Below, piece by piece: positions 20,775 to 43,585 of a stretch of DNA of 64,000 nucleotides. Below the pieces are notes generated by a model, which had not been told where the DNA came from, made no database searches, and worked only from the letters and a program-made list of their open reading frames with translations. The stretch is from an uncultured Verrucomicrobiae bacterium. Its GTDB lineage: Bacteria > Verrucomicrobiota > Verrucomicrobiia > Chthoniobacterales > UBA10450. Position 1 is the first letter of the stretch, and every line of letters starts with the position of its first letter. The stretch spans positions 1,088,001 through 1,152,000 of the forward strand of contig CAVWPA010000003.1 in assembly GCA_963756875.1 (NCBI GenBank), written 5' to 3'. Position numbers and translations under genes: made by a program.

Positions 20775-22163
20775 ATGAGTATGCCTCCCGTGCTCACCGG
20801 GGCGGCGCGCACCCCTTCGCGACGCCGCATGAGCAGCAGCGAAGATCAATCAATTGGCGCCCCCGACGTTTTAAAAACGATCGAGCAGCACATTCTGCTC
20901 GACGGTTTCAAAATCGTCATCGACCTGGAAAAGAGTCGCGGCCCTTATCTATACAACGCCATTAGCGGACGGCCCCTGATCGATCTCTACGGATTTTTCG
21001 GGTCGATGCCGGTGGGGTTCAATCATCCATATTTCGAGCAGGCCGAGGTTCAACGCGATCTTCTACGCGCGGCAAAAGTGAAAATCGCAAACTCGGACGT
21101 TTACTCAGCGGGTTATGCGGAATTTGTTGAAGCATTTTCCAGAGTAATGGGATTGCCGCCGCTGGATCGTTATTTACTGATCGAAGGCGGCGCGCTCGCG
21201 GTCGAAAATTGTTTGAAAGCGGCGATGGATTGGAAGGTGCGAAAGAACATGGCGGCTGGCCACGGCGAGCGCGGCACCGAAATCTTGCATTTCCGCCGCG
21301 CCTTTCACGGCCGCAGCGGCTACACCATGAGCCTCACCAATACCGATCCGCGCAAGACCGACCTGTTTGCAAAGTTCGATTGGCCGCGTGTTTCCTGCCC
21401 GCACATTGATTTTTCGCTGCCGGAGTCGAAGCGCGAAGCCGATGTCATCGAGCGTGAGAAGAAATCCGAAGCGGAGATCCTGGCCTGCCTCGAAACGCGC
21501 AAGATCGATATTTGCGCCATCATTATTGAGCCGATCCAGGGCGAAGGTGGCGACAATTATTTTCGCGGCGAATGGTTAAAAAAGCTGCGCGAGATCTGCG
21601 ATGGCAACGACATCCTCCTCATTTTCGACGAGGTGCAGTGCGGCATGGGCGCAACCGGACGCAATTGGTGCTGCGAGCATTTCGGTGTGTTGCCAGACCT
21701 GCTTGCGTTCGGAAAAAAAGCGCAAGTTTGCGGAGTGATGGCCGGCCCGCGTCTTGATGAAGTGAAAGACAACGCGTTCCGCTTGCCGGGCCGGCTAAAC
21801 TCGACCTGGGGCGGCAATTTTACCGACATGGTTCGCTCCACGCATTACCTGCGCATCATCGAAGAGGAGCATCTCGTTGAGAATGCGGCAAAGGTCGGCG
21901 CGTATTTCCTCGATCAACTGCGCGAAGTGCAAAACGAATTTGACGTCATCAAGGGAGCGCGCGGACGCGGAATGCTTCTGGCGTTCGATTTGCCCGATCC
22001 CAAAACGCGCGAGGAAATGTGGAAGGGGCTATTCGATCTTGGCGTCCTGACATTGCGTTCCGGCGAGCGATCAATCCGTTTCCGTCCCGCGCTCGATATG
22101 ACGGCGGGCGTCGTCGACGAGGCGATCCAGCTGATGCGCAAATACTGCCGGGAGCGAAAATGA
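20775..22163 (+). CDS. lat: L-lysine 6-aminotransferase
   Basis: Class III PLP aminotransferase: HILLDG, NSDVYS, GGALAVENCLKAAMDWK, AFHGRSGYTMSLTNT, DEVQCG, FGKKAQVCG, STWGGN. Confidence 0.92.
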   Translation: MSMPPVLTGAARTPSRRRMSSSEDQSIGAPDVLKTIEQHILLDGFKIVIDLEKSRGPYLYNAISGRPLIDLYGFFGSMPVGFNHPYFEQAEVQRDLLRAAKVKIANSDVYSAGYAEFVEAFSRVMGLPPLDRYLLIEGGALAVENCLKAAMDWKVRKNMAAGHGERGTEILHFRRAFHGRSGYTMSLTNTDPRKTDLFAKFDWPRVSCPHIDFSLPESKREADVIEREKKSEAEILACLETRKIDICAIIIEPIQGEGGDNYFRGEWLKKLREICDGNDILLIFDEVQCGMGATGRNWCCEHFGVLPDLLAFGKKAQVCGVMAGPRLDEVKDNAFRLPGRLNSTWGGNFTDMVRSTHYLRIIEEEHLVENAAKVGAYFLDQLREVQNEFDVIKGARGRGMLLAFDLPDPKTREEMWKGLFDLGVLTLRSGERSIRFRPALDMTAGVVDEAIQLMRKYCRERK

Positions 22164-22173
22164 CGATAAACCG

Positions 22174-22227
22174 CTGCAGCCGCGGTCGCTGACCGCGGAG
22201 AAGCCGCAGCCAGCGGCAGCGGCTACA
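22174..22227. repeat. GTAG-type REP doublet between lat and pcd
   Basis: CTGCAGCCGCGGTCGCTGACCGCGG...GCAGCGGCTACA. Confidence 0.6.
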
Positions 22228-22233
22228 ACAATT

Positions 22234-23781
22234 ATGAAAACCACGCTCGAAAAACTCGGCATCGCCGACGAAAATCCCGGCGTCTTTTGCGGGGAATGGC
22301 GAGGAGGCGGTGCGAAGATCGACAAAATTTCGCCCATTGACGGCCGGAAACTCGCAAGCCTACATACGGCGTCCGGAGAGGATTACGACGCGGCAATAGG
22401 CCGTGCGCATGAAGCGTTTTTGAAGTGGCGCGTGACGCCCGGTCCTGTGCGTGGCGAAACGGTGCGCCGTCTCGGCAACGCGCTTCGCGAAATGAAACAT
22501 GAGCTGGGCCAGCTCGTGACGCTCGAGACAGGGAAGATCATTGCCGAAGGCGAAGGCGAAGTGCAGGAGATGATCGATATTTGCGATCTCGCCGTCGGCC
22601 AATCGCGGATGCTTTACGGCCTGACGATCCAGTCGGAACGCCCGAACCATCGCTTAATGGAGCAATGGCATCCGCTGGGTGTCGTCGCCGTGATCAGCGC
22701 ATTCAATTTTCCGGTGGCGGTTTGGTCGTGGAACGCCGCGCTCGCGGCGGTTTGCGGCGACGCGACCGTCTGGAAGCCGTCGGACAAGACACCGCTCACT
22801 GCGATCGCGGTCACAAAAATCGCGGAGCGCGTATGCCGCGACACCGATGCCGACCCGGCCATCTTTACTCTGCTCGCGGGCGACCGCAAAACGGTTGGAC
22901 AAAAACTGGCGGACGACGCGCGGATTCCGATGGTATCGGCTACGGGCTCGGTGAACATGGGGTTGAACGTGGCGAAAGCTGTCCATGGCCGGTTAGGCAG
23001 AACGATCATGGAACTCGGCGGCAATAATGCGCTGATCGTTACGCCGACCGCCGATATCGAGATGGCGACGCAATCGATCTTCTTCGGCGCGGTCGGTACC
23101 GCCGGGCAACGTTGCACTTCGACACGGCGCGTGATCATGCACGAATCGATTGCCGACAAGATTCGCAAGAAACTGTTGGCCGCTTACAAGAGTCTGCCCA
23201 TCGGGAACCCGCTCGACAGAAAGACGCTAATGGGTCCGTTGATCGACAAGGGCGCGGTCGACATGGTGCAGCAATCCGTCCAACGATTGAAAGACGAAGG
23301 CGGTGAAGTCCTTTACGGAGGCGAACGTTTGGAAGGTCCGCAATACCCGGGCGGCGCCTACATGACGCCGTGTCTGGCGAGTGCGACGCCCGATTTTGAG
23401 ATTGTATGTCACGAAACGTTCGGCCCGCTGCTTTATTTGATGACCTATCGCGATTTCGATGAAGCGATCGCGATCCAAAACGGCGTGCCGCAGGGATTGA
23501 CGTCGTCGATCTTCACCAACGACGCGCGCGAGGCGGAGAAGTTCATGAGCGCAGCCGGGAGCGATTGTGGAATCGCGAACGTGAACACCGGCACCAGCGG
23601 CGCGGAAATCGGCGGCGCGTTTGGCGGCGAGAAGCAAACCGGCGGCGGCCGCGAAAGCGGAAGCGATTGCTGGAAGCAGTACATGCGCCGGCAGACGAAC
23701 ACGATCAATTTTTCGAGCGAGCTGCCGCTCGCACAGGGCATTCATTTCGGCGGCCCGGACGAAGGCAGCTCGACCGCGTAG
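22234..23781 (+). CDS. pcd: Piperideine-6-carboxylate/2-aminoadipate-semialdehyde dehydrogenase (ALDH7 family)
   Basis: GEVQEMIDICD, SERPNHRLMEQWHPLG, GTAGQRCTS, SGAEIGGAFGGEKQTGGGRESGSD; follows lat. Confidence 0.9.
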   Translation: MKTTLEKLGIADENPGVFCGEWRGGGAKIDKISPIDGRKLASLHTASGEDYDAAIGRAHEAFLKWRVTPGPVRGETVRRLGNALREMKHELGQLVTLETGKIIAEGEGEVQEMIDICDLAVGQSRMLYGLTIQSERPNHRLMEQWHPLGVVAVISAFNFPVAVWSWNAALAAVCGDATVWKPSDKTPLTAIAVTKIAERVCRDTDADPAIFTLLAGDRKTVGQKLADDARIPMVSATGSVNMGLNVAKAVHGRLGRTIMELGGNNALIVTPTADIEMATQSIFFGAVGTAGQRCTSTRRVIMHESIADKIRKKLLAAYKSLPIGNPLDRKTLMGPLIDKGAVDMVQQSVQRLKDEGGEVLYGGERLEGPQYPGGAYMTPCLASATPDFEIVCHETFGPLLYLMTYRDFDEAIAIQNGVPQGLTSSIFTNDAREAEKFMSAAGSDCGIANVNTGTSGAEIGGAFGGEKQTGGGRESGSDCWKQYMRRQTNTINFSSELPLAQGIHFGGPDEGSSTA

Positions 23782-24005: not shown

Positions 24006-24017
24006 ATCCGCCCTCCA

Positions 24018-25453
24018 TCAGCGTGCGATCGTCAGCCCGAGAAGTTCGTCGACTTTCTTCGCGGCATCGAGATTCATGATGGCCTTCTGCAACTTCTTGC
24101 ATCGGTCCTTGCCGATCACGTCGCCGCCCAGCGCGTTGAATTTCACCGCGATTTCGTCCTCGGTCATGGGATCGCGCGGATCGCCTTTTGGAACATCGAC
24201 ACGCGTGGAGTGCGATTTGCCGTCATTCGTGGTGATCGTCACACGGCTCGGCTGAAACTTCGGAAACAGCGCTTCGAATTCTTCGTTAGGCACTACCTTG
24301 ACCTTGTCCATAATCGGAATGAGCGCCTTGTCGCGCACGCGTTCCTCCTTGAACTGCAACGGCGTTACCATGCCATCGACCAAACCGGCGGCCATGCAGT
24401 AGGGGAGGGAATGATCCGCAGTTTCCTTGGAATCCGGCCGATACTTGTGCGGGTCGCCCAGAATGTCCGCGGCACGCGCGATCACTTCCACTTTGATTTC
24501 CTTCACGTCACCGGCCTTGATGTTGTGTTCTTTTACGGTCTTCATCATGGCGGTGAGCGGCGAATGACTGAGCGCTTCGATCGGGAAACTCTTCATCCCG
24601 CAATCGAGAATCCGGTAATGAGACTTCGGTCGAGTCGGGAAGGTCTGTGACCAAGCGCTTCGCCATCGAAAGTTGCGGGCTCGCCCTTGTATTGCACATG
24701 ATGGAAGACCGCGAACAAGCCTTCCTTCCCGTCAATGATGTGTTCGGGGCCCGAAAATCCATCGAGTGCCAGGAGCGCGCTCTCGACGCCCATGCGTCCG
24801 GCCCATGGATCGACTGTGTTTTTCATGTTGGTCAGTTTGCCCGCGGTTACCGCGCCCGGACAAAACGTTCGAGACGCGCTGATGCCGATCGCGGAAACCA
24901 TCTGCGCCGGCGTCAGGTTGAGCATGCGGCCGGCAGCGACCGGCGCCGCAAACGCGCTCAAGGTTGCGTGATGCCAACCGTACTCGCGCACACCCGGACG
25001 TCCGATTTCGCAAAGCCGCATCTCGATTTCGTAGGCGATGATCGTGGCGAGGATCAGATCCTTGCCGCTCAGTCCTTCACTCTCGCAAAGCGCAAGTGGC
25101 GCCGCGATGAGATCGCTCGGATGACACGGATCGGCTTTCCAATAAATGTCGTTGTAATCCATGGAACGGATCATGTGACCGTTGAGAAACGCAGCATCGA
25201 CCGGGTTGGTCTTGAATCCGGAGACGAACGCGGTGGCCTTGCCGCTGCCGCTCCCCATCGCGCGGTAATGCTTCATTAAAATTATCGCATCTTCCTGCTG
25301 ACTCCCGCCAAGCGCGCAGCCGATGGAATCGAACCAAAATAATTTCGCGGCTTGAATCGCCTCCGGCGAAAGATGCTCGTATTTTAGCGAGCAAGCCCAG
25401 TCGGCGATGGTGTAGGATAAAAGGTGCTTTGAATCAGTCGATTGCTTTGTCAT
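24018..25453 (-). CDS. MmgE/PrpD-family dehydratase (frameshifted near 24625-24655 as sequenced)
   Basis: FDSIGCALGG, MDYND, CHPSD in the 5' ORF; GMKSFP, ETADHSLPY, PKGDPRDP in the 3' ORF; span is 3n+2. Confidence 0.88.
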
Positions 25454-25496: not shown

Positions 25497-25590
25497 GCCC
25501 GCGAATCACACGAATCACGCTAAAATGTCGAGCCAGCAAATCGAATCTAAGAATTCCTATCAGTTCGCGTCAATTCCAGTTATTCGCGGG
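25497..25590. repeat. Inverted CACGAAT-type array pair (empty)
   Basis: GCCCGCGAATCACACGAATCACGCTAAA ... TTCGCGTCAATTCCAGTTATTCGCGGG. Confidence 0.65.
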
Positions 25591-25610
25591 TGTCTTTTCC
25601 TTGCTCCGTC

Positions 25611-27410
25611 ATGAATCTTAAGAATGTTTTTGGCGAACTAAAGCGGCGCAATGTTTACAAGGTGGCGGTCGCGTATGCCGTGGTTGGCTGGCTCTTGGTC
25701 CAAGTCGCAACCCAGGTCTTTCCGTTTTTTGAAGTTCCGAATTGGGCGGTGCGACTGGTCGTCCTTCTCATCATTGTTGGATTTCCAATTGCGCTTGTGA
25801 TTGCGTGGGCTTTCGAGCTCACGCCGGAAGGAATTAAGCGCACGGAAGATGTCGATCTTACAGCCTCGGCGCGACAACCACGAAAGCATGCCTGGATTCA
25901 TGTCGTGATCGTTGGAGCTGCGCTCTCAGTTGGTTTGTTTTTCATTGGACGCTACACGGCTCGGAACAATGACGGTTCGTCTTCCACCGAGTTGTCAGCG
26001 AAATCGATCGCGGTGCTGCCGTTCGATAATCTGAGTCGGGACCCCGACAATGCCTTTTTCGCCGAGGGCGTACAGGACGAAATCCTGACTCGCTTGGCCA
26101 AGGTCGCGGACTTGAAAGTTATTGCGCGGACATCGACACAACGATTCAAGAGCGCGCCTACCGATTTGTCCGAGATCGCAAGGCAACTCGGCGTCGCGAA
26201 TATTTTGGAAGGAAGCGTGCAGAAATCAGGCGACCAGGTGCGCGTCAACGTCCAGCTCATTAACGCGATGACCAATGCGCATCTCTGGGCAGAAATCTAC
26301 GATCGCAAGTTGAGCGATATTTTTGCGGTGCAAAGCGATATCGCCAAAACGGTGGCCGACACGTTGCAGGCGAAGCTTACCGGCTCAGAGAAGCAAATGA
26401 TGGCTACGCAAGAGACGACCGACACGACCGCGTATGAGCTTTATCACAAAGGCCGGTCGTTTTGGGACAAGCGGTCGGGCGACAACATTCCGAGAGCGAT
26501 CGCGTTCTATGAACAGGCGATCGCGCGCGATCCGAACTACGCGCTGGCTTACGCCGGTCTGGCTAGCGCCCATATTCTGTCCTCCTTTTACACGGACGCG
26601 GACCGGCGTGAGTCGAATTCGAAGGCGAAAGAGGCAGCCCTCAAAGCTCTTTCGCTCGATCCCAATCTCGCGGAGGCGCATTCTGCGCTCGGGAAAATTC
26701 TCTTCTGGGCTGAACTCGATATCGCCGGAGCGATGCGCGAATATGAACGGGCGATCGAGCTCAAGCCCAACGACGCGTTCGCGCATCATTGGTTGGGCAA
26801 CGACGCCCTGGCCAGCCTCGGACGGTTCGAGGAAGCCATTGCCGAGAGCAAGCGCGCGGTCGCGTTGGATCCGCTCTCGCCCATTATTAACACGGACTTG
26901 GGGGTGACCTTTTTATACGCCCGTCGCTACGACGAAGCCGCTGCGCATTTACGGAAGACGCTCGCGATCGACCCGACCTTTTTCTACGCGCACTTTAATC
27001 TCGGCATTGCCCTTCAAGTGAAGGGCGACCTGTCTGGCGCGATCGCGGAATACGAAAAAGCAAAGCAATTAGCCGGCGACAACTTGTTAGTTTTGGCGGC
27101 GTGCGCTGCTGCCAAAGCTCAGGCTGGTGACAAGGATGCCGCGCGGCGAATGCTCAGCGAGCTCGATGAGATAAGTAAGAACCGCGAGGTGGTTGGTTAC
27201 TTCCGCGCTTTGCTTTATCTCAGCCTGAACAATAAAGATGAAGCACTCCGCTGGCTCGAACAGGGCTACGAAGAACGCGACGGCTCCAACATTTGCTGGA
27301 TCAAGGTTGATCCCCTCCTCGATTCATTGCACGGCGATCCGCGTTTCGAGGCGCTCGCCAACAAAATTGTTCCAGCCGCGAAATTCAAATCAGCGACCAC
27401 TTCAAAATGA
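25611..27410 (+). CDS. Membrane-anchored TolB-like/TPR-repeat protein
   Basis: ELKRRNVYKVAVAY N-terminus, three TM segments, KSIAVLPFDNLS TolB-N-like domain, multiple TPRs, DPLLDSLHGDPRF end. Confidence 0.9.
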   Translation: MNLKNVFGELKRRNVYKVAVAYAVVGWLLVQVATQVFPFFEVPNWAVRLVVLLIIVGFPIALVIAWAFELTPEGIKRTEDVDLTASARQPRKHAWIHVVIVGAALSVGLFFIGRYTARNNDGSSSTELSAKSIAVLPFDNLSRDPDNAFFAEGVQDEILTRLAKVADLKVIARTSTQRFKSAPTDLSEIARQLGVANILEGSVQKSGDQVRVNVQLINAMTNAHLWAEIYDRKLSDIFAVQSDIAKTVADTLQAKLTGSEKQMMATQETTDTTAYELYHKGRSFWDKRSGDNIPRAIAFYEQAIARDPNYALAYAGLASAHILSSFYTDADRRESNSKAKEAALKALSLDPNLAEAHSALGKILFWAELDIAGAMREYERAIELKPNDAFAHHWLGNDALASLGRFEEAIAESKRAVALDPLSPIINTDLGVTFLYARRYDEAAAHLRKTLAIDPTFFYAHFNLGIALQVKGDLSGAIAEYEKAKQLAGDNLLVLAACAAAKAQAGDKDAARRMLSELDEISKNREVVGYFRALLYLSLNNKDEALRWLEQGYEERDGSNICWIKVDPLLDSLHGDPRFEALANKIVPAAKFKSATTSK

Positions 27411-27458
27411 AGATCGAAAACTTCTTCGCCGAGCTGAAACGGCGCAACGTTTATAAAG
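27407..27458 (+). pseudogene. Orphan 5' stub of a second TolB/TPR paralogue
   Basis: ATGA-coupled MKIENFFAELKRRNVYK, after which similarity stops. Confidence 0.75.
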
Positions 27459-27830
27459 GAGCACTCGCCGTGAACCTATTGAGAAACTCAAGAGGCGCGT
27501 CCCTCGCTGCTCTTTAGGTACAGCTTTCCACGGCCCAAAGGAAAAGCATTAGAATAGCGCACATCCAAAGCATGTTCATTACGCCAGAAGCGATCCCAAA
27601 ACCGAAGTGCGCAATCGATCCAGCCGACAAACAACGCTACCGCGACCAAAAGCAGGAGCCATTTCATCTCCACTGAATATCGCGCGACGATAACACTTTG
27701 GGATTTAACTCGTTTCGGCAATTCAGCATGTCCAAACTCGGAACATCCACATTCGTGCATTTTGCGTGAATTGGCGGAAGTCTGACTTTTGATCTGTGAA
27801 TCAGTGGAATATGTGGCTGACTCGCAGCAA

Positions 27831-27885
27831 AGTCGTGACGGCGAGGGCGCCGTAACCAGCACGCGAGGCGCGTGCGCTCCCCAGA
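27831..27885. repeat. Half copy of family A palindromic element
   Basis: GGCGAGGGCGCC...CCAGCACGCGAGGCGCGTGCGCTCCCCAGA. Confidence 0.7.
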
Positions 27886-28033
27886 TCAAGACTTCGCATG
27901 CGCTGCCTCCACCTGCGGATCGTGGGCAGACGCCTTCTCGTTCGGTGTAACGATCAACGAATCTAACGGAGCAACCGAGCCTTTGCTCAAGGCTACGACT
28001 TGGACAGGCGCGGCGTCGAGCGTTCAGCACATC

Positions 28034-28600
28034 CTACGCTTTGTCGTAAACGGCCTTGGATTTGAACTTCTTCCCGTTCGCATCCGTGCCATTGATCGTG
28101 ATCGTCCGCGATTTGCCGTCTTTGGCGACAGTGATCCGGCCCGACCAGACCAACTTCCTATTCTTCCAGGTCGAGATATCGTTGGTCCGATCGTTGACGA
28201 TTTTGTAAGCGGCGTGGTCCCAGCCCACATTTCCTTTCGTCGGATAGGCTTTTCCATCCCATTTGCCGACCCAGACGCTGTGCGTCGGTTTCCCATCCTT
28301 GTCGACGCCATCCACTGTTATCTTAATCTTGTCCCCCTTCTGCGCGTAAACGACGGTTGTATTCTTGCCCATCCCCGGGTTGAGCTTTGACTTTGCCTCG
28401 TTAAGTTTCCACGTGCCGATTTGAGGGCTCATCGCTGTTACCGTCTTGGCGGCGGCTTCTTTTTTCGGCGCCATTGCCTTTGCCGTTTTTGCGGGTGCTG
28501 GGCTTGCCGCCGGCTTGGTCGTTTTCGTTTGACCGAAACAAACTGCTGCAGCCATAACCGACAGAGCCACCGCCACTACTGTAATTCGAAAGTTCTTCAT
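28034..28600 (-). CDS. Secreted hypothetical protein (lipocalin-like beta fold)
   Basis: Signal peptide, Ala/Pro/Lys linker, GTWKLNEAKS, DGKAYP, DGKSRTIT. Confidence 0.8.
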   Translation of the reverse strand: MKNFRITVVAVALSVMAAAVCFGQTKTTKPAASPAPAKTAKAMAPKKEAAAKTVTAMSPQIGTWKLNEAKSKLNPGMGKNTTVVYAQKGDKIKITVDGVDKDGKPTHSVWVGKWDGKAYPTKGNVGWDHAAYKIVNDRTNDISTWKNRKLVWSGRITVAKDGKSRTITINGTDANGKKFKSKAVYDKA

Positions 28601-28746
28601 GCGACGATTGGCTCAGAACCGTCGTTAGACGTCAATAACAATCACCTAAACAGCGGATTACGCGGATTAACACGGATTGACGTTCAATCGAGCATCTGGA
28701 ATCTAGTTATCGAATCCTAAGTCCCGCGAGTGCGGTCGATGATGTC

Positions 28747-29222: not shown

Positions 29223-29232
29223 TATGTGATCA

Positions 29233-29643: not shown

Positions 29644-29737
29644 GGCAACCGCATCGGTTGCCGTTTTTTGGCTGTAGGCGCAGGCGCATCGCCTGCCATT
29701 TGTTTTCAATTCAGCAAGCGGTGCGCTTGCCCTACAA
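29638..29737. repeat. GTAG-type REP cluster
   Basis: TTGTAGGGCAACCGCATCGGTTGCC...GCAAGCGGTGCGCTTGCCCTACAA. Confidence 0.8.
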
Positions 29738-29750
29738 CGGGGAATCATGC

Positions 29751-29858: not shown

Positions 29859-29879
29859 TCAACTCGCACATTCGATCCT

Positions 29880-35793: not shown

Positions 35794-36000
35794 TTATCCT
35801 ATGTTGATTTCCTTTCCGTAAAGACGTTTGAACAGTTGCTTTCGCTGCTCCGATTCCGATAACCCCCGTGGCAGCGACGCTTTTACCATTTCCCTCGCGC
35901 TATCGAACATTTGCGCGCCCATCACAAAGCGTTCTTCGCCGGAAAGAGCCATTAATTTTTCGCGCATCACTCGTTCGATGTTGGGCGCAGTATCGGTCAT
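35794..36000 (-). CDS. Small helical protein, putative antitoxin (Rv0078B/MenA1-like)
   Basis: 68 aa, MTDT...LMALSGEERFVMG; ATGA-coupled to the nucleotidyltransferase gene. Confidence 0.6.
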   Translation of the reverse strand: MTDTAPNIERVMREKLMALSGEERFVMGAQMFDSAREMVKASLPRGLSESEQRKQLFKRLYGKEINIG

Positions 36001-36533
36001 GCCAGGCACTCCTTCAGTAAGGTATCCAGGCCCAGTTCACGCGTCCAGCGTCGCAGATAGGGCGCGTCATATCCGGTGGCGAGCAGATTCCGGACATCGC
36101 CCAGTTGCAACTCGGAGTGCGAATCCTTCGCCCAGAAAAGCTTCGATATGATAAGGTCTTCCTTGCTCACGATAAATGTCGTGAAATCAAGAATTGAAAT
36201 CCTTTGTCTCCGTTCAAACTCCGCCTGGCGATACTCGTTTTTTTTGCGGAGGATGCAGTCCACTTTGATCACGCTTTGCTGGTGAATGACATTGAAAATC
36301 GACTCATTAGCGATCGATTCGCGAACATTGTCCTCGCTTACATAGTAGTCCGGCCGAAATAGGGCAGCTACGCGGGTAGCGTCTTCCGGTTCAATCGCGA
36401 TCACGACATCGATATCGCGGGTCATGCGCGGTTGCGCATAGTAGTTCATCGCCATGGAACCGGTGAGCATGTACGGGATGCCGGCCTCGTCGAATCTGTG
36501 AGAAATGTCGCGCACAATGTCGATCTCATTCAT
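35997..36533 (-). CDS. Pol-beta-superfamily nucleotidyltransferase (DUF6036/AbiEii/MenT-like), putative toxin
   Basis: YMLTGSMA...PRMTRDIDVV (GS and DxD), SKEDLIISKL, YLRRWTRELG. Confidence 0.78.
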   Translation of the reverse strand: MNEIDIVRDISHRFDEAGIPYMLTGSMAMNYYAQPRMTRDIDVVIAIEPEDATRVAALFRPDYYVSEDNVRESIANESIFNVIHQQSVIKVDCILRKKNEYRQAEFERRQRISILDFTTFIVSKEDLIISKLFWAKDSHSELQLGDVRNLLATGYDAPYLRRWTRELGLDTLLKECLA

Positions 36534-36561
36534 CGAACCGGCTGGGATCAGCGATCCCCGG

Positions 36562-37173
36562 CTACAGCTTCTTCGCCGCGCGTTTGCCGAGGAGTTTGGC
36601 GATATCGAAGTCCACGAAGTCGGCGTGATGAAAAATGATCGACTCGATGGAGCGTTCGACTTTGTCACCTTCATGGCTGTGCGTGGCGATGATGTGCATG
36701 ACTTCGCCGGGAATCCCGTGTTTGTACGCGAGCGCAACACCGCTGAACGGATGCCGCAGTTGTTGCCCGAGTTTTCCCTGGACTACTTTGCCGGATGCGT
36801 CCTTGTCGTACTCCAACGGCTTCCCCACGTCGGCCAGAAGCGCACCCGCGATGAGATAGTCTCGCTGGACCGGAATGCCGCAGCGGAACGATTTTTCGAG
36901 CACATCGGCGATGGCGATGCATTGCAACGCGCAGGAATTCAGATGCTCGACGAACGTCATGTCGATGTCGCCGGCGAGGAGCGTGAACTTGACCGCCCGC
37001 AGTTCGTCAAAGGTCCAACCTTTCCCACCGCAGCCGGTTGTAATGGCTTCGTTCCAGACCGCCGCCACTTTTTCGCGCAGCGACTTGTCGCTGATCTTTA
37101 GCAAGCTGGGGAAGAGGTCCGCGATTTCGTTAACGCCGTAATTGGTTCTTTGGGTCGTAGTCATAATGATCAC
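36562..37173 (-). CDS. HD-domain-like phosphohydrolase (HDIG family)
   Basis: FVEH, GALLADVGK, LRHPFSG, HIIATHSHEG, FHHADFVD. Confidence 0.82.
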   Translation of the reverse strand: MIIMTTTQRTNYGVNEIADLFPSLLKISDKSLREKVAAVWNEAITTGCGGKGWTFDELRAVKFTLLAGDIDMTFVEHLNSCALQCIAIADVLEKSFRCGIPVQRDYLIAGALLADVGKPLEYDKDASGKVVQGKLGQQLRHPFSGVALAYKHGIPGEVMHIIATHSHEGDKVERSIESIIFHHADFVDFDIAKLLGKRAAKKL

Positions 37174-37463: not shown

Positions 37464-37479
37464 TCATGATTGACGACTA

Positions 37480-38448
37480 ATGAACACGAATCACACGAAT
37501 AGCGGAATGACTTTTTGCCGATGGATTGGGGTTTCGATGGTATGTGCAGGAACGATACTTGCGCGGCCGCCGGGCGGCCCAGGCGGGCCTCCCAACAATA
37601 GCCGTGTGAAAATGGATCTTCCATCGCGGGTGTCGATCCGCACCGAAGGCGAACGCCGGATCATCGAGAGCAATGGGATTCCCGACCATGAAACGGGGAC
37701 GTTTCCCGGCCCGGGAAATCCCAATGCGATCATGGCGCAAAATTATCACTTTGAAACCACAACGCATCCCACGAAAGCGGCCCATCCCATGTCGATCCGG
37801 AGGTGGCTTTTTGGCGTCGCCATCGACGGCGTGGTGTTCGATCCCGGGACTGCGGATTACTGGCGCAACGACCGCAATTCCGTCTGGAACGTGGAAGGAA
37901 TCATCGACGGACGGCGCACGTTGGGGATCGATTGGAGCGACGCGCACGTGCAACCAAACGGCGCCTATCATTACCACGGCGTCCCCTGGGGCATCCTGCA
38001 AAAACATCATGCGGAAAAAAAGATGTTCCTGGTTGGGTGGGCGGCGGACGGGTTTCCGATCTACGGACCGTACGCCTACAAGGATCCGAATAATGCTTCG
38101 AGTCCGGTGGTTGAAATGAAATCGTCGTACCGGCTGAAGAGCGGAATGAGGCCCGCGGGGAACGAGGGACCGGGAGGACGTTACGACGGAACGTATACCG
38201 GCGATTACGAATATGTAGCAGGGGCGGGAGATTTGGATGAATGCAACGGACGCACGGGAGTGACGCCGGAGTTTCCAGGAGGGACGTATTATTATGTGGT
38301 GACCGAAACCTTCCCGATCGTGTCCCGTTATTTCCGTGGGACACCCGACCCGAGTTTTCGGCATCCGTTCGATCCCGCGCGCGGACGCGGCCCGGGCGGA
38401 CCAGGAGCACCGGGCGGTCGGCCGCCACCGCCATTCCGTAACCACTAA
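37480..38448 (+). CDS. YHYH-domain secreted protein
   Basis: SNGIPDH, FGVAIDGVVFDP, AHVQPNGAYHYHG, GWAADGFPIYG, DLDECNGR; start 37480 or 37507. Confidence 0.9.
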   Translation: MNTNHTNSGMTFCRWIGVSMVCAGTILARPPGGPGGPPNNSRVKMDLPSRVSIRTEGERRIIESNGIPDHETGTFPGPGNPNAIMAQNYHFETTTHPTKAAHPMSIRRWLFGVAIDGVVFDPGTADYWRNDRNSVWNVEGIIDGRRTLGIDWSDAHVQPNGAYHYHGVPWGILQKHHAEKKMFLVGWAADGFPIYGPYAYKDPNNASSPVVEMKSSYRLKSGMRPAGNEGPGGRYDGTYTGDYEYVAGAGDLDECNGRTGVTPEFPGGTYYYVVTETFPIVSRYFRGTPDPSFRHPFDPARGRGPGGPGAPGGRPPPPFRNH

Positions 38449-38871
38449 TAAACACGAATGGACACGAATGACGGAAAGCTGGTGGCCAAAGAAGAGGTGT
38501 TTCGCATTGTCGGCTGTGCGATCGAGGTTCTTAACGCGCTTGGGCACGGCTTGGTTGAAAAGCCATACGAAAATGCGTTAGCGGTAGAGTTTGGTCTGCA
38601 AAATATGCCTTTTCGGCAGCAGCCTTCGTTCGACGTTTTTTATAAGGAGCATAAGGTAGGTCTCTTCATTCCCGACTTAATCGCATTCGACACCGTTGTG
38701 GTGGACACAAAGGTGATTGATCGAATCACCGATCATGAGCGTGGATTGATGCTGAACTACCTTCGAATCACGAATCTGCGCGTTGGAGTTGTCCTGAATT
38801 TCAAACGTCCCAAACTAGAGTGGGAGAGAATTATTTTATGAATTTGTGTTCATTCGTGTCCATTCGTGGTT
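38440..38871. mobile_element. Candidate element: GxxExxY gene flanked by 30-bp imperfect inverted repeats
   Basis: 38440-38469 AACCACTAATAAACACGAATGGACACGAAT versus reverse complement of 38842-38871 AACCACGAATGGACACGAATGAACACAAAT (25/30 by eye). Confidence 0.55.
38458..38841 (+). CDS. GxxExxY protein (PD-(D/E)xK nuclease superfamily)
   Basis: GLVEKPYENAL, IPDL...VVVDTK, LNYL, GVVLNF. Confidence 0.92.
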   Translation: MDTNDGKLVAKEEVFRIVGCAIEVLNALGHGLVEKPYENALAVEFGLQNMPFRQQPSFDVFYKEHKVGLFIPDLIAFDTVVVDTKVIDRITDHERGLMLNYLRITNLRVGVVLNFKRPKLEWERIIL

Positions 38872-40574
38872 AGAGATCTAGGCGGCGGGCCGTCGTAGCC
38901 ATGCTTGACCGGATCGATTCGCCGCATCGGTTTCTCGCGGGTTTGTTCTTCGATCACGTGTGCCACAAGTCCGGGAGTTCGCGCGATCATGAAGATTCCG
39001 TTGAACGCCGCCGGGTCCATTCCCAGATCGGCAAGGATGGCGCCGATCGCGCCGTCTACGTTGATCGGCAGCGCTTTTTTCGCATCGGCGAACGATTTCT
39101 CGACGGCTCGCGCCGCTTTCATGTGCGCTCCGTCGACGCCGGCCTTCCGCGCCAGCTCGAACAAACGTGCCGTGCGCGGGTCCCTGGTGTGATAGCGATG
39201 GCCAAAACCCGGCATGCGGTCGCCGCTCTCTCTCATCTCCGCCAGAGTGCGTGTAGCCGCTTCATCCATTGAAATGGATTCGCACGTGGCGCGGTCCGCG
39301 ATCTTTTTTAGTTGTCGGGCGCAATCTTCGATCGCGCCGCCATGATGACGATTGATCGACATGATTCCGGCGGCGACCGACGCGCTGAGCGACGCGCCGG
39401 TGGACGCAACCGTTCGCGCGGCCAACGCGCTCGGCGGCGTCGCGCCATGATCGATCGACGATACCAGGATCGCATCCATCAATTGTCCGATCGCGGGCGA
39501 CGGCAGTTCGCCGGTCAAAATTAAATACACCGCTGCGCCAAATGAAACGCGTCCCATCAGATCGGCGATGTCATATCCGCGCACGGCGACCCGGTTCGGT
39601 TCGATTTGCGTTACTGCGGTGTTCCAGACCGCATTCTTGTCAGTTTCGCTCATAAGACTCTGTCCTTTCATTTGCTTGAGAATTTCAACCACGGCATCCG
39701 GCAGGTCGCCGAACGCATCGACTACGGTGGCGCCTGCTTCGCGCAGCGCTTTCACTTTGCCAGCGTGCGTGCCCCGACCGCCTTCAATGATCGCTCCCGC
39801 GTGACTGAAACGCGTGCCTTCGCGTGCCGCTTTACCGCCGATATACGCAATCACCGGCTTCGTCATTTTTCGATCGCGAATCAGTTGCGCCAGTTCCTCT
39901 TCCTGTGACGAACCAATTTCGCCAAAGATGACGACGGCTTCGGTGAGCGGGTCGGCTTCAAACATCAGAGCCGCGTCGGGGATACGAATTCCAAGAACGG
40001 CGTCGCCGCCAATGTGCGCGATGGTTGAAATGCGCACGCCGGCTTGCCCGAGATAGTAGCCGGTGCTCGAAGCCATCCCGCCGGATCGACTGATCACGCC
40101 AACACCTTTCGGAATGCCCGGCTTGAACCATTGCTTCGCACTTTCGGCGCGACCGCCGATCATGCCGGCCACGGCCTTGCCCGGGCTCAACACTCCAAGC
40201 GTGTTCGGTCCCAGAAAAATCGCGCCATTCGCTTTGGCCGCGGCGGCGATCTCCATGGCGTCCCATACTGGAACGCGATCGGGCACGAGCACGGTCAGCT
40301 TGATTCCCGCGTCGATGGCGGAAATTGCCGCTTCCTTCACACCCGCGGCGGGCACAAAGATTACGGAGATGTCGATTTGGCCGAGAGCCTTTACCGCGTC
40401 CTGCGGCGTATTGAACACGGGCACGCCGAAGACGGCCTGTCCGCCTTTACCCGGTGTGACGCCGGCGACCACGTTGGTTCCGTACTCGCGCATGAGGCGC
40501 GTGCGCGCCCGGCCTTCGCGGCCAGTGATTCCCTGCACCAGGACGCGCTTGGTTTCGTCGATTAAAATTGCCAT
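38850..40574 (-). CDS. SucD-like CoA-ligase alpha domain fused to a citryl-CoA-lyase/citrate-synthase-like domain (AclA-like)
   Basis: VLVQGITG, GVTPGKGG, GPNTLG, SRSGG, phospho-His FSHAGA; C-terminal DHGATPPS, HHGGAI, PGFGHR, INVDGAI. Confidence 0.9.
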   Translation of the reverse strand: MAILIDETKRVLVQGITGREGRARTRLMREYGTNVVAGVTPGKGGQAVFGVPVFNTPQDAVKALGQIDISVIFVPAAGVKEAAISAIDAGIKLTVLVPDRVPVWDAMEIAAAAKANGAIFLGPNTLGVLSPGKAVAGMIGGRAESAKQWFKPGIPKGVGVISRSGGMASSTGYYLGQAGVRISTIAHIGGDAVLGIRIPDAALMFEADPLTEAVVIFGEIGSSQEEELAQLIRDRKMTKPVIAYIGGKAAREGTRFSHAGAIIEGGRGTHAGKVKALREAGATVVDAFGDLPDAVVEILKQMKGQSLMSETDKNAVWNTAVTQIEPNRVAVRGYDIADLMGRVSFGAAVYLILTGELPSPAIGQLMDAILVSSIDHGATPPSALAARTVASTGASLSASVAAGIMSINRHHGGAIEDCARQLKKIADRATCESISMDEAATRTLAEMRESGDRMPGFGHRYHTRDPRTARLFELARKAGVDGAHMKAARAVEKSFADAKKALPINVDGAIGAILADLGMDPAAFNGIFMIARTPGLVAHVIEEQTREKPMRRIDPVKHGYDGPPPRSLTTNGHE

Positions 40575-42143
40575 TTAGCGCGTGCCTTCCGCTGTTTGAC
40601 GACCCCGAAAGCTTTCGGGGCCAATCAACTTGTCGAGACTTGGAATCTCAAGTTCGAGATAAAATCCGTCGACTCCAGCAAGCCGACACTCAACATCGCA
40701 TGCGAGCAACTCGGAATCTTTTGTAGCGAACTCTTCGCTCGGCAATGCAGCCGCAGGCACGCCTTTCCGATCCACGATCAACCCACCCGAGTGGGTCTCG
40801 ACGGCCGCGCGAATTTCGTTCCACTTCGAGGCATCGATCCATACCTGGCCGCCTTTTACTGAAAATTTGGTAGCCGATGAATTTTTGACGAACTTCGGCA
40901 TACGCGGAGCGCGTGGTTTCCATTTCGTGCCGTCTGCGCTGGCGACGAGATCCGCAAAACGCTCGGCGATGAAGGCTGGAGTGTCGGTTTTGCGATAGCC
41001 CTCAAGCGGCGCGCGAAGTAGTTTCGACATTCGCTGCAAAATATCCACGGCGCGATCTTCGGCGTTGCCGCCTAACCGAATTACCGCGGGAATATTCAGG
41101 TCAAGTTCCCAAAACGCCTTGGCCAGTCCGTAAGCGGACCAATATTGTTCCTGGCTCGCGACGCCCGAGCCCGACCCGAAATATCCGACGAGATCAGGTT
41201 GAGCCAGAATGATTCGGCTGGCGCGATACACTTTGGACGCGGATGGATTGCCGCTGGTGTCGGTGAAATTGGCAATGGTGAATCCCGCGTTCACGATGGC
41301 GTCCATCGACATCATCGACCCGCCACCGCCGGCGCCGTGAAACCCGGCAAGCCCTTTGGAACCCTTTGGGCATTCCGTCGCCAACTGCGCAAAATAAAAT
41401 GTGCCGCGATGATCGCTTTGTTCCACGGCGTAAGCCACGCGCTCAAGAGCCGTGGGCGGATGATCGAATTCTCTGGCAATTTCAATTCCAAGATCAGGAT
41501 GTCGCGCCACCGCGTAATCGTCGATCGTGATCCGACAATCGGCGGCGACGAACTCGTCATTTTTCGTCAGCACCAGCGGGTTGATCTCCAGCGACCTGGC
41601 TTCAACGCTACGGGCGGCGGCAAATAATTTTCGGATTGAATCGGCCAGTTTGGCCGCTTGCGCCGTGGAAAGTTTGCACGAAGCGACAGTTTCGCTGACG
41701 GCCGAATCGAGTGGGCCGCTATTCACGTCGCAGGGAATACGCCGCGTCGAAGCTGCGCGTTCTTCGATTCCAGTGCCTCCTCCGCCGGCAAAAATAATTA
41801 CCGGAGCGCGGGCGGCATCATCGATCGCTAACGAAAGAAAGAATTCCCGGTCGATGTCGAGCTTCTCTTCCACAAGAACGGCATCGACCGGAAACTGTCC
41901 AACCTTCATCGCCAGCATCCGCGCGGCGTGATCGCGAATGTCGTTTGGCTTTTTGGCGAACGCGACCCCGCCGATGCCGGCGCGTCCGGTGGTCCAGGCC
42001 TGAATCTTGACGACTACTTCGCCGCCGAGTTCCTTCGCCGCCGTCACGGCGTCATCAGCGGCAAAAGCCGCCCGGCCGCGCGGAATCTTGAATCCGCTCC
42101 GCGCAAGAATGGCTTTGCCTTGATATTCGTGAAGTCGGGCCAT
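40575..42143 (-). CDS. ATP-grasp CoA-ligase beta subunit (SucC/AclB-like) with C-terminal extension
   Basis: MARLHEYQGK, VVKIQAWTTGR, LEINPL, GAGGGGSM, ANFTDTSGNP, VIRLGG; abuts the alpha gene. Confidence 0.88.
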   Translation of the reverse strand: MARLHEYQGKAILARSGFKIPRGRAAFAADDAVTAAKELGGEVVVKIQAWTTGRAGIGGVAFAKKPNDIRDHAARMLAMKVGQFPVDAVLVEEKLDIDREFFLSLAIDDAARAPVIIFAGGGGTGIEERAASTRRIPCDVNSGPLDSAVSETVASCKLSTAQAAKLADSIRKLFAAARSVEARSLEINPLVLTKNDEFVAADCRITIDDYAVARHPDLGIEIAREFDHPPTALERVAYAVEQSDHRGTFYFAQLATECPKGSKGLAGFHGAGGGGSMMSMDAIVNAGFTIANFTDTSGNPSASKVYRASRIILAQPDLVGYFGSGSGVASQEQYWSAYGLAKAFWELDLNIPAVIRLGGNAEDRAVDILQRMSKLLRAPLEGYRKTDTPAFIAERFADLVASADGTKWKPRAPRMPKFVKNSSATKFSVKGGQVWIDASKWNEIRAAVETHSGGLIVDRKGVPAAALPSEEFATKDSELLACDVECRLAGVDGFYLELEIPSLDKLIGPESFRGRQTAEGTR

Positions 42144-42180
42144 GATTGGAAGGTATTTGGATGATCCTAGCGGAATTTTC

Positions 42181-42329
42181 GGGTAGCGCACGCGTCTCGC
42201 GTGCTGGCGAGCGCGTCCTCGCGATCGCGAACTTTTTCCAGTAATCATTATTGGTCACTTCAGTCCAATCAAAGAAAAGACTGTTTCGGCGAGACGCCAA
42301 AACCAGCACGCGAGACGCGTGCGCTACCC
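42181..42329. repeat. REPIN/MITE-like palindromic element, family A
   Basis: GGGTAGCGCACGCGTCTCGCGTGCTGG...CCAGCACGCGAGACGCGTGCGCTACCC in the divergent intergenic region. Confidence 0.85.
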
Positions 42330-42409
42330 AGACACCTGACCTTGCGGCTTGATCTTATTGATCGCGGATGGCGGGCGTAATAGTGTCGATCCAACCGAAG
42401 GCGCGCTGC

Positions 42410-43585
42410 ATGACCTCAACCTCGCTCGATTATTACGGCATTGAAGAGCTTTTGAGCGACGAAGAACGCGCGGCGCGCGATCGGGCGCGGCGTTTTGTGC
42501 AGGATGAAGTAATGGATCAAGTCGTGCCGTATCATCGGGCGGGCAAGTTTCCCGAACATCTTACGCCGCGCATGGGCGCGTTACGTTTCTATGCGCCGTA
42601 CTTAAAAGAACACGGCTGCGCGGGGCTGAGCTACACGGCCTACGGCTTGATCATGCAGGAGCTGGAACGAGCTGACTCTGGCCTTCGTTCACTGGCATCG
42701 GTGCAGGGCGCGCTTGTCATCCACGCAATTCATTCCTTCGGCACGCCGGAACAGCACGCGCAGTGGCTGCCGGGACTGGTGTCGGGCGAACGCGTTGGTT
42801 GTTTCGCGCTGACCGAACACGGACACGGCTCGGACCCTGGCGGGATGGAAACCCAGGCCAAACGCGATGGCGATCATTATGTTTTGAACGGCAGTAAGTG
42901 CTGGATCGGTAACGCATCCATCGCGGACGTGAAAGTCGTGTGGGCGAAGGACGACGACGGACGCGTGGGCGGATTCATTGTGGAGAAGGATGCTCCCGGA
43001 TTCCGCGGGCAGGACATCGAGGGAAAGTTCAGCTTGCGCATGTCGCGCACGTCGGAGTGCTGGTTCGAAAACTGTCGCATACCAGCGGAAAGCCGGCTGC
43101 CGAAGGCGAAGGGACTGCGCGCACCGCTGTCGTGTCTTTCACAGGCGCGGGTGGGCGTGGCGTGGGGAGTGATTGGCGCGGCCATCGATTGTTACGAAAC
43201 GGCGCTGGCGTATGCGAAATCGAGAGAACAGTTCGGCCGTCCAATTGCCGGGTTTCAACTGGTACAGGAAAAACTTGTCTGGATGGTGCAGGAGATTACC
43301 AAGGCGCAATTGTTAGCGCTCCGTCTTACTCGCATGATGGAAAAAGGCACGGCACGTCCCGCCCAGATTTCGCTGGCGAAGCGGAACAACGTGTGGATGG
43401 CGCTGGAATGCGCGCGAAAGGCGCGCGACATCCTAGGCGCCGCGGGTATCACGGATCGCTATTCGGTGATTCGCCACCTCATGAACCTTGAGAGTGTCTA
43501 CACGTATGAAGGGACGCACGACGTCCACGCGTTGGTGATCGGCCACGACATCACAGGGCTCGACGCCTTTGGCGGCTCTTCATGA
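42410..43585 (+). CDS. gcdH: Glutaryl-CoA dehydrogenase-like acyl-CoA dehydrogenase
   Basis: ELERADSGLRS..SVQGAL, GCFALTE..HGSDPGGM, KFSLRMS, AKRNNV, HLMNLESVYTYEGTHDVH. Confidence 0.82.
   Translation: MTSTSLDYYGIEELLSDEERAARDRARRFVQDEVMDQVVPYHRAGKFPEHLTPRMGALRFYAPYLKEHGCAGLSYTAYGLIMQELERADSGLRSLASVQGALVIHAIHSFGTPEQHAQWLPGLVSGERVGCFALTEHGHGSDPGGMETQAKRDGDHYVLNGSKCWIGNASIADVKVVWAKDDDGRVGGFIVEKDAPGFRGQDIEGKFSLRMSRTSECWFENCRIPAESRLPKAKGLRAPLSCLSQARVGVAWGVIGAAIDCYETALAYAKSREQFGRPIAGFQLVQEKLVWMVQEITKAQLLALRLTRMMEKGTARPAQISLAKRNNVWMALECARKARDILGAAGITDRYSVIRHLMNLESVYTYEGTHDVHALVIGHDITGLDAFGGSS

Follow-up and report, generated by a model that had tools for sequence, protein, structure and literature searches.

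ATP-citrate lyases of the AclAB kind (e.g., the Chlorobium enzyme 6hxj and human ACLY) consist of two chains, an ATP-grasp beta chain and an alpha chain in which CoA-binding and CoA-ligase domains are fused to a lyase of the citrate-synthase family. In Hydrogenobacter thermophilus, the corresponding parts are the CcsAB ligase (6hxq) and a free-standing citryl-CoA lyase (CCL; 6hxp). The upper part of the alpha-aminoadipate (AAA) pathway, which begins with a LeuA-family homocitrate synthase, employs a Lys4-type homoaconitase and a homoisocitrate dehydrogenase (HICDH), and the methylcitrate cycle uses a citrate-synthase-family enzyme (PrpC), the dehydratase PrpD and an aconitase. Here we describe a module of six genes with likenesses to each of these systems, found in a 64,000-nucleotide stretch of DNA (hereafter the window) of an uncultured Verrucomicrobiae bacterium (GCA_963756875.1, contig CAVWPA010000003.1, positions 1,088,001 to 1,152,000). 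An original prediction, made from this stretch alone, had read these genes as a new lysine/2-oxoadipate route through homoisocitrate and homocitrate with a step like that of ATP-citrate lyase. Our own proposal, for which we would claim slightly less than even confidence, is that they form an accessory, horizontally acquired module for the citrate-synthase-type elongation or shortening of 2-oxoacids by one carbon, most likely acting on the 2-oxoglutarate/2-oxoadipate pair.

The module is embedded in a lysine/glutaryl-CoA locus. On one side lie lat, encoding L-lysine 6-transaminase (20775-22163, + strand; TIGR03251, 553.7 bits vs a cut-off of 520.8), and pcd, encoding L-piperideine-6-carboxylate dehydrogenase (22234-23781, +; NF050084, 778.2 vs 730). 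Convergent with these, the module genes all occupy the minus strand: a PrpD/MmgE-family gene (24018-25453; Pfam MmgE_PrpD_N), a HICDH/AksF-like beta-decarboxylating dehydrogenase (30840-32043; Pfam Iso_dh), a Lys4-type homoaconitase with fused large and small domains (32376-34341; TIGR00139), an intact HD-domain protein (36568-37164; 199 aa aligned, Pfam HD 30.5 bits) and the two subunits of the ligase-lyase, AclA-like (38850-40574; Pfam CoA_binding, Ligase_CoA and Citrate_synt) and AclB-like (40575-42248; Pfam ATP-grasp_2, 127.5 bits). Divergent from the last is gcdH, a glutaryl-CoA dehydrogenase gene of type 1 (42368-43585, +), followed by a thiolase of the PRK06289 type (44260-45537, +; Pfam Thiolase_N and Thiolase_C, NF004936 362 bits vs 375). 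The product of gcdH finds the Thermus glutaryl-CoA dehydrogenase 2eba (1.1e-132), 3sf6 (4.7e-125) and the human enzyme 1siq (2.8e-110); of its top 10 PDB matches (1e-132 to 1e-103), nine are named glutaryl-CoA dehydrogenase and one is annotated simply as an acyl-CoA dehydrogenase (ACAD), with the next set at 2e-78. The ORF (open reading frame) listing and the HMM scans bear out the genes that the original prediction had named, with their strands and their convergent and divergent layout, as well as its statement that no LeuA-type or LysW/X/Z/Y gene occurs among the window ORFs scanned. The six minus-strand genes are present and co-oriented as it had said; it had missed that they are non-adjacent, with unrelated ORFs between them, and that three are frame-broken.

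The AclB-like subunit is a SucC-like ATP-grasp/CoA-ligase beta chain (residues 38-408) with a C-terminal extension of about 150 aa, for which a Pfam search run to E 0.5 gave no match at E <= 0.01. Among solved structures it is nearest to SucC (3ufx_B, 8.6e-46), followed by CcsA (6hxq_B, 9.8e-26) and AclB (1.1e-23); its match to Citrate_bind (PF16114) is weak (23.9 bits vs a cut-off of 26.8, 45 residues covered). The AclA-like subunit is a SucD-like alpha chain (residues 1 to about 305, with the SHAGA histidine motif) fused to a citryl-CoA-lyase-type domain (about 307-574), and it matches SucD (2yv2, 5e-74), CCL (6hxp, 1.7e-58), AclA (6hxj_B, 1.5e-51) and CcsB (6hxq_A, 1.6e-46). Taken alone, the lyase domain is much nearer to the Hydrogenobacter CCL (6hxp, 2.4e-59) than to citrate synthases or to the lyase module of AclA (~2e-17). 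The subunit passes the cut-offs of two NCBIfam citryl-CoA lyase subfamily models, NF004869 (268.6 vs 212) and NF004866 (262.9 vs 245), and stays below that of the citryl-CoA lyase equivalog NF004864 (219.1 vs 261). The citrate-synthase motifs DH, HGGA, GFGHR..DPR, NVDG and AR.PG of the domain align with those of 6hxp and of citrate synthases, and both they and the SHAGA histidine are invariant in an alignment of five homologues, down to 37% identity, with H258, H376, H411, H459, D507, R467 and R532 among the invariant positions; we take these motifs to carry the catalytic His/His/Asp and the oxaloacetate-binding Arg of citrate synthases. By Pfam, the two chains have the domain plan of ATP-citrate lyase, with CoA-binding, CoA-ligase and citrate-synthase-like lyase domains in alpha and ATP-grasp in beta. 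In these PDB matches the ligase half resembles SucCD more closely than it does AclAB or CcsAB. Homocitrate is a substrate that we infer.

The partner proteins are described chiefly from G021, a relative with intact orthologues of the three broken genes (G-numbers denote genomes, G000 being the one holding the window, and L-numbers loci). The G021 homoaconitase (622 aa from an internal ATG) scores 702.9 bits on TIGR00139 vs a cut-off of 529.9, thereby passing the fused-domain, fungal-type Lys4 equivalog, whereas neither of the two window pieces passes alone (356.3 and 373.7 bits). The specificity loop in the small domain of the homoaconitases reads K-H/L-T-Y-R, which matches neither of the patterns YLRT and YLVY. 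The dehydrogenase has as its best profiles the methanogen homoisocitrate dehydrogenases AksF2 (329.3, cut-off 540) and AksF (283.6, cut-off 500). In HMMER alignments it shows Ser-Pro-Ile-Val where the isocitrate dehydrogenase (ICDH) 6ltf has Ser-x-Asn-Val and the Thermus HICDH 1x0l has Gly-Ala-Ile-Arg85; this SPIV motif recurs without exception in the 12 module dehydrogenases compared, which come from diverse loci. Thus, relative to 6ltf, the enzyme keeps the Ser of ICDH, but Ile replaces the equivalent of Asn115; in the Escherichia coli enzyme, S113 and N115 bind the gamma-carboxylate. The PrpD-like protein contains both MmgE/PrpD domains, N- and C-terminal (218 and 144 bits). The HD protein is 92% identical to its G021 orthologue; its dyad is Ala-Asp in five sequences of the family and in the KSB1 protein discussed below, and His-Asp in that of TA06, while five other His and several Asp are invariant in the same alignment, suggesting that the metal site may be altered. 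No PDB sequence match to the HD protein was found at E <= 0.01, and its AF2 model (pLDDT 84.5) recovers generic HD folds only, the best being YhaM (E 6e-4).

The distribution of the module was surveyed in 151 genomes of the Udaeobacter family; these relatives are non-independent and hence no test statistic is given weight, and the unpublished genomes G002, G007, G014 and G151 enter the tallies as single rows on which the conclusions do not depend. The AclA-like gene is present in 61 genomes (86-93% identity for rows spanning essentially the whole protein; a close relative with an 86% identical AclA-like gene is a Candidatus Udaeobacter sp.), the TIGR00139 homoaconitase in 56 (53 over the cut-off, and none of 14 control genomes), and the module-type PrpD-like gene in 65, including three partial remnants. 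AclA-like and homoaconitase genes occur together in 54 genomes and are both missing from 88, while 7 have AclA-like without the homoaconitase and 2 the homoaconitase without AclA-like; 52 have all three. Several of the nine genomes with one part only are fragmented or incomplete assemblies. The G113 locus reads thiolase (-), gcdH (-), then AclB, AclA, HD, homoaconitase, dehydrogenase and PrpD-like, all on the plus strand and contiguous, and then pcd (-), lat (-) and a long ACAD gene (-); the arrangements in G021 and in the window are loosened versions of this compact block. Four genomes (G017, G056, G075 and G020) keep all of the parts although these are widely separated or placed on different contigs. 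AclA-like and lat are no more than 25 kb apart in 20 of the 26 genomes that have both on one contig (hand tally), and the module-negative G125 has a gcdH paralogue followed by pcd, lat, long ACAD and FadB. The grouping of the six genes is more than chance, because they recur together in the family and form one same-strand block in G113; the conservation of the set in other genomes, which the original prediction had named as a check, is thereby supported. Outside the family, the CCL domain was found in none of 398 sampled genomes of the phylum, and the fused AclA-like form in none of 16 genomes from 15 other families of the order; therefore, the module was acquired once, by transfer, and then patchily lost. 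The DNA read sets that share words with this stretch, each at a share of at most 0.09, are labelled soil, sediment or permafrost; no matching RNA read set was found.

The module is inherited with a particular kind of gcdH. Two types of this gene exist in the family, respectively at least 80% and 50-59% identical to that of the window, and they never occur together at E <= 1e-90. Type 1 occurs in 48 of the 61 genomes with the module and in 17 of the 90 without it, and 8 of those 17 hold PrpD-like or homoaconitase genes; either type is found in 56 of 61 and 45 of 90, respectively. This enrichment and the embedding of the module beside gcdH indicate that it is co-inherited with the glutaryl-CoA branch and is not its replacement, which fits less well with the suggestion in the original prediction of an alternative to that branch. 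The other 45 module-negative genomes have no gcdH at E <= 1e-90, although lat is nearly universal.

Related modules exist in other phyla. A KSB1 metagenome-assembled genome (MAG) has a HacA-like gene, E3 and LipB, followed by SucC-like (514 aa), SucD-like, CCL, HD, dehydrogenase and PrpD-like genes, and a TA06 MAG has HacAB-like, HD, SucC-like, SucD-like, CCL and again HacAB-like genes; in both, the HD orthologue adjoins the CCL gene. A metagenome scan seeded with two HD proteins yielded 252 HD-positive stretches, of which 80 loci were kept. At least one module partner is present in 44 of these: CCL in 27, the module dehydrogenase in 27, SucD-like in 13, a Lys4-type homoaconitase in 12, PrpD-like in 7 and HacA-like in 5. 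The remaining 36 loci include 14 shorter than 4 kb, in which the absence of partners is little informative; of the loci of at least 8 kb, 12 of 27 have a partner. A contig scan with the AclA-like protein was dominated by ordinary SucD, the full fused length appearing in 3 of the 80 loci kept among the matches listed. Homologues of CitF at L123:6104-7690 (490 bits) and L124:6495-8054 (509 bits) are divergent from, and upstream of, a CCL-HD-dehydrogenase-PrpD-like series; no SucCD-like gene was found in either locus, and these may represent a transferase-type variant of the module. In L120 (1709-4011) and L121 (2297-6649), a homologue of the KSB1 HD protein (72-73% identity) directly follows TctC-TctB-TctA tricarboxylate-transporter genes, and no further module gene is visible there. 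HD homologues of lower identity (44-48%) sit in other contexts, and the flanks of L133, L134 and L145 consist of housekeeping genes. Throughout, the module hydro-lyases are of the homoaconitase or isopropylmalate isomerase type and accompany an AksF-like dehydrogenase; AcnA, AcnB and canonical ICDH never occur in their place. A PrpD-family protein belongs to the Udaeobacter and KSB1 modules, and a second HacAB pair is found in TA06 and L145.

The ligase-lyase fusion and the apparent exchange of ligase for CoA-transferase together suggest that a citrate-like acid is turned into a CoA thioester and cleaved, or that the reverse takes place. On the scheme that we propose, the SucC-like beta and SucD-like alpha chains would, via a phospho-histidine, form or draw on the CoA thioester of a tricarboxylate resembling citrate, and the fused citryl-CoA-lyase domain would split it into acetyl-CoA and a 2-oxoacid, or join the two. 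The PrpD-family dehydratase and the Lys4-type homoaconitase would together shift the hydroxyl across the acetyl-derived arm, with the AksF/HICDH-like dehydrogenase performing the (de)carboxylating redox step and the HD-domain protein as the constant companion of the lyase. With the preferred substrates, the sequence would run acetyl-CoA + 2-oxoglutarate <-> homocitryl-CoA <-> homocitrate <-> cis-homoaconitate <-> homoisocitrate <-> 2-oxoadipate + CO2. This pair is favored for the Udaeobacter family by the Lys4-type equivalog, the position between pcd-lat and gcdH, and the lack of a LeuA- or homocitrate-synthase-type gene in all five family genomes searched, where only HMGL-like matches of ~100 bits were seen, in line with what the original prediction had noted for the window.

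The presence of two hydro-lyases may have a stereochemical explanation. Enzymes of the si-type citrate-synthase family leave the arm that derives from the acyl group in a position inaccessible to dehydration by enzymes of the aconitase family, and the methylcitrate cycle hence needs both PrpD and an aconitase. An elongation begun by a citrate-synthase-family enzyme is thus predicted to call for a PrpD-type dehydratase and a separate hydratase, and the module shows the same pairing. By this analogy, the product from 2-oxoglutarate is predicted to be (S)-homocitrate, as opposed to the (R) form made by LeuA-type synthases. The most specific form of the proposal, namely an undescribed ATP-coupled homocitrate lyase/synthase of the citrate-synthase family that acts on this "wrong-handed" (S)-homocitrate in company with a PrpD-family dehydratase, a Lys4-type homoaconitase and an AksF-like enzyme, is one that we put forward as decidedly doubtful.

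Regarding direction, for which the original prediction had named both possibilities, we lean slightly towards cleavage (its backward run), in which 2-oxoadipate and CO2 would be converted to 2-oxoglutarate and acetyl-CoA and lysine would become anaplerotic. ACL-type enzymes usually cleave; further, the CitF-type variant offers no driving force for synthesis, and the 2-oxoglutarate formed would restore the amino acceptor of Lat. The opposite direction, in which the module would supply 2-oxoadipate to GcdH with a gain of ATP, has a claim just short of even: every step would be downhill, the co-inherited gcdH and thiolase would take 2-oxoadipate onward, and the contexts in other phyla look biosynthetic.

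Observations on the enzymes, the gene neighborhood and the state of the genes in the window weigh against this proposal. At the level of the enzymes, the lyase domain shows no visible change from the true Hydrogenobacter CCL in the motifs compared, and therefore citrate or another analogue could still be its substrate. The dehydrogenase falls below every homoisocitrate-dehydrogenase cut-off, including that of NF040855 (iso_homocit_dh; 151.7 vs 680), and has Val in place of the Thermus Arg85, a residue that we take to be a substrate determinant. The Thermus R85V variant reportedly loses the use of isocitrate and keeps that of homoisocitrate; if so, the SPIV motif would speak against isocitrate and be compatible with homoisocitrate. 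The PrpD-like protein is far below the PrpD equivalog (97.3 vs 950 for G021; 50 vs 575 and 38 vs 458 for the window pieces), and its PDB neighbors are IDS epimerase (8e-30) and cis-aconitate decarboxylase (~1e-23), both nearer than any solved PrpD at E <= 1e-10. Finally, L133 and L134 have a single hydro-lyase within about 8-10 kb.

The neighborhood raises the alternative of a self-contained module that came to lie beside lat, pcd and gcdH only through insertion in the family ancestor and has no metabolic tie to lysine. Within the family, lat is core (131 of 151 genomes) while the module is accessory, and therefore lat and pcd do not need it; moreover, the PrpD-like gene (-) converges on lat and pcd (+), with which it cannot form one transcript. 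Elsewhere, no Lat was found over the cut-off in the KSB1 or TA06 genome, and a threshold of at least 35% identity revealed lat, pcd and gcdH in none of the 80 metagenome loci. Of the co-occurrence with lat and pcd that the original prediction had proposed to check, the embedding in the lysine/glutaryl-CoA locus stands, whereas a link to lat and pcd is weakened by these distributions. The absence from the 398 phylum genomes, implying transfer, is likewise what insertion would produce. However, where the AclBA-HD part has moved away (G017, G020, G016 and G075), the PrpD-like gene still stays beside pcd-lat; gcdH type 1, which is divergent from AclB, is strongly enriched in module-positive genomes; and 2-oxoadipate is a node common to both gene sets. 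We consider this alternative rather unlikely.

A second alternative, which we regard as rather unlikely, is that the module of the window is a decaying relic with three true pseudogenes, so that the pathway is off in this organism. By comparison with the intact G021 orthologues, the homoaconitase has one frame change (frames -2 and -3 meet at residue 222), the dehydrogenase two, leaving it in three frames, and the PrpD-like protein one. The DNA alignment resolves the breaks into single-base insertions, five in all: one in the homoaconitase near 33585, two in the dehydrogenase near 31863 and 31194, and two in the PrpD-like gene near 24657 and 24630. All five fall in the 4.5 kb that the three module genes make up, with none in 13.5 kb of nine neighbors compared with their orthologues, a pattern to which uniform error would by our own arithmetic assign (0.25)^5 ~ 0.001. 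Decay would also agree with the patchiness of the module, evidently lost many times in the family with PrpD-like remnants in G001 and G132, and with the insertion of unrelated genes into the cluster in this genome. Against it, other genes of G000 are affected: lysA is likewise split by a 1-base insertion as aligned to G021 (G000:C3:309052-310339, L105; pieces of 283 and 218 bits), the HMGL-like gene looks split as well, and so does an IcmF-like mutase at 59614-60807/60744-62612 (+). The latter comprises a B12-binding plus MeaB GTPase ORF and a methylmalonyl-CoA-mutase-domain ORF, which overlap by 64 bases in different frames and together look like one IcmF-type fused mutase (59614-62612) split by a frameshift, pointing to indel errors in the assembly. 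The alignment of the HMGL-like gene with that of G021 was left unused, the two being 45% identical and not orthologous. Furthermore, G000 is in 3 contigs yet only 87.6% complete; other few-contig assemblies are broken in the same genes (the AclA gene of G008 in three pieces, the AclB gene of G021 in two frames), whereas G113, in 70 contigs, has all six intact; every one of the five events adds a single base, and neither deletions nor stop codons are seen; and the broken genes are still 87-93% identical to those of G021, as are the intact ones. Assembly error is thus the probable source of the breaks. The frame change in AclB-like of G021 lies near its 5' end, and a PIN-domain ORF stands between the AclB-like and AclA-like genes of that genome (L012:7118-7567).

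The same chemistry might serve another 2-oxoacid pair, such as pyruvate/2-oxobutyrate (via citramalate), 2-oxoisovalerate/2-oxoisocaproate (via isopropylmalate) or 2-oxoadipate/2-oxopimelate, the module standing in for a missing LeuA-family enzyme in some lineages. The module-bearing TA06 genome has no match to PF00682 yet places two HacAB/LeuCD-like pairs beside the module, the contexts outside Udaeobacter are housekeeping and free of lysine genes, and the dehydrogenase has a hydrophobic Ile-Val at the gamma-group positions and AksF enzymes as its best matches. AksF enzymes also accept longer homologues of homoisocitrate. These points are countered by the Udaeobacter hydratase, which passes the homoaconitase equivalog, and by the placement of the module between pcd-lat and gcdH. 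In addition, a passage of a Udaeobacter genome paper describes Ca. U. copiosus as without branched-chain amino-acid synthesis (10.1101/053942), which also points towards the 2-oxoglutarate/2-oxoadipate pair. We judge a different pair improbable.

Still less probable, in our estimation, is a citrate enzyme unrelated to homocitrate, i.e., a new fused citryl-CoA synthetase/lyase (in effect an ATP-citrate lyase) that forms a citrate <-> 2-oxoglutarate arm with aconitase- and ICDH-like enzymes, whether in the manner of the reductive tricarboxylic acid (TCA) cycle or as ATP-conserving citrate synthesis. The closeness of the lyase domain to the Hydrogenobacter CCL with its shared motifs, the two citryl-CoA lyase subfamily cut-offs passed, the weak Citrate_bind match of the beta chain and the presence of CitF, a citrate-lyase subunit family, in the place of the ligase in L123 and L124 would all suit it. 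Yet the citryl-CoA lyase equivalog is missed (219 vs 261), the ligase chains are nearer SucCD than CcsAB/AclAB, the aconitase-family member is Lys4- or HacAB-type and never AcnA/AcnB, the dehydrogenase has Ile at the Asn115-equivalent of ICDH, citrate needs no PrpD-type dehydratase, and the family already owns citrate synthase genes while the module is accessory. A forward AAA lysine synthesis replacing the diaminopimelate pathway is ruled out by DapA in 5 of 5 family genomes, LysX in 0 of 5, and the non-complementarity of LysA with the module.

LysA is over the cut-off in 117 of 151 genomes, and 7 of the 20 listed genomes without a match are module-positive and 13 module-negative, with three more unlisted. 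A check of the glyoxylate shunt, made for its bearing on the direction of the module, found a full isocitrate lyase in G000 and G020, and only PrpB-like matches in G113, G125 and G041. The 2-oxoacid dehydrogenase E1 is present in one copy in each of five genomes, module-positive and module-negative alike.

Among the other features of the window, a conserved 180-aa ORF between gcdH and the thiolase (43569-44111, +; without a Pfam match) is 83-86% identical to ORFs adjoining gcdH in G021 and G017. Upstream of lat lie a FadB-like enoyl-CoA hydratase/3-hydroxyacyl-CoA dehydrogenase and a long ACAD (14449-18771, +; Pfam), a lower beta-oxidation part whose order is common to G021, G125, G041, G017 and G113 and which module-negative genomes also retain. 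The genes interposed at 25590-30836, a TPR gene (+), four small ORFs of no known family (-) and an aldo-keto reductase (-), are considered outside the module because it is contiguous in G113. Also interposed are an NHL/PEP-CTERM ORF (+) and a 366-aa ORF of no family (37477-38577, -), an insertion between AclA-like and HD that does not occur in G021, G113 or G020; a 261-aa open frame without a family (36000-36782, -), which overlaps the HD gene, is unlikely to be a gene. For the interposed ORFs, too, the Pfam search to E 0.5 gave no match at E <= 0.01. A tricorn-type protease of 1159 aa with PD40, Tricorn C1/PDZ and S41 domains (48142-51618, -) fits the peptide-scavenging lifestyle proposed for Udaeobacter. 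About 3.5-7 kb past the end of the window is a core methylcitrate-type cluster of prpD, a PrpB-like lyase and a citrate-synthase-like gene (G000:C3:1155488-1158878), found in most family genomes; its prpD is 34-35% identical to the module PrpD-like gene.

The terms "homocitryl-CoA" and "homocitrate lyase" occurred in none of the papers covered by our full-text searches, consistent with the original prediction that the route is new. In passages of the two Udaeobacter genome papers, an ATP-citrate lyase was not identified (10.1101/053942), a lysine synthesis pathway was not identifiable (PMC7343977), and the module goes unmentioned in either. If the proposal holds, a second, unrelated family of the citrate-synthase/ACL type would do the job of the LeuA-type homocitrate synthase, and the PrpD-like protein would be a candidate for the homocitrate dehydratase that has long been missing beside homoaconitases of the Lys4/LysTU type. 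Run backwards, the route would fix CO2 and turn lysine, otherwise purely ketogenic, into TCA-cycle carbon, giving an anaplerotic, CO2-using exit for lysine breakdown to Udaeobacter, a very abundant and indeed dominant soil lineage known metabolically from genomes only. The HD-bearing module spread through uncultured phyla such as KSB1 and TA06 may replace LeuA-family synthases there, so that "missing pathway" calls from LeuA-family markers may mislead; being widespread and marked by a conserved HD protein, it could be tested with five or six recombinant enzymes.

The module, which is real and widespread, has a predicted function that would combine the known ACL/CCL chemistry with isomerase and dehydrogenase steps of the AAA type. 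With AclAB it shares the two-chain plan with its fused lyase and the presumed conversion of acid, ATP and CoA to an acyl-CoA and thence to acetyl-CoA and an oxoacid; unlike AclAB, its chains are nearer SucD and SucC, its lyase is nearer the free-standing CCL, its beta chain bears an extension of no known family, and its gene partners are homoaconitase-type instead of TCA-type. The split modules of KSB1 and TA06 have the same three genes as the Hydrogenobacter thermophilus system (SucC-like, SucD-like and CCL), whose CCL is the closest solved relative of the lyase, but the ligase chains are not CcsAB-like, HD and homoaconitase/AksF-like partners accompany them, and ligase and lyase are fused in Udaeobacter. 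The citrate lyase subunit CitF, absent from the window, has its homologue in L123 and L124 at the SucCD-like position, with no CitD or CitE seen there. Like the methylcitrate cycle, the module unites a citrate-synthase-family enzyme, a PrpD-family dehydratase and an aconitase-family hydratase; it differs in its divergent PrpD-like protein and in the decarboxylating dehydrogenase that replaces methylisocitrate lyase, the genome having a separate core cluster for that cycle. With the upper AAA pathway it has in common the Lys4-type homoaconitase, the HICDH/AksF-like dehydrogenase and the same proposed intermediates, whereas LysX was not found in the family genomes and the presence of LysA in most module-positive genomes shows that the module is unneeded for lysine synthesis; in place of the LeuA-family homocitrate synthase of that pathway it has the ACL-like enzyme, together with an extra member of the PrpD family.

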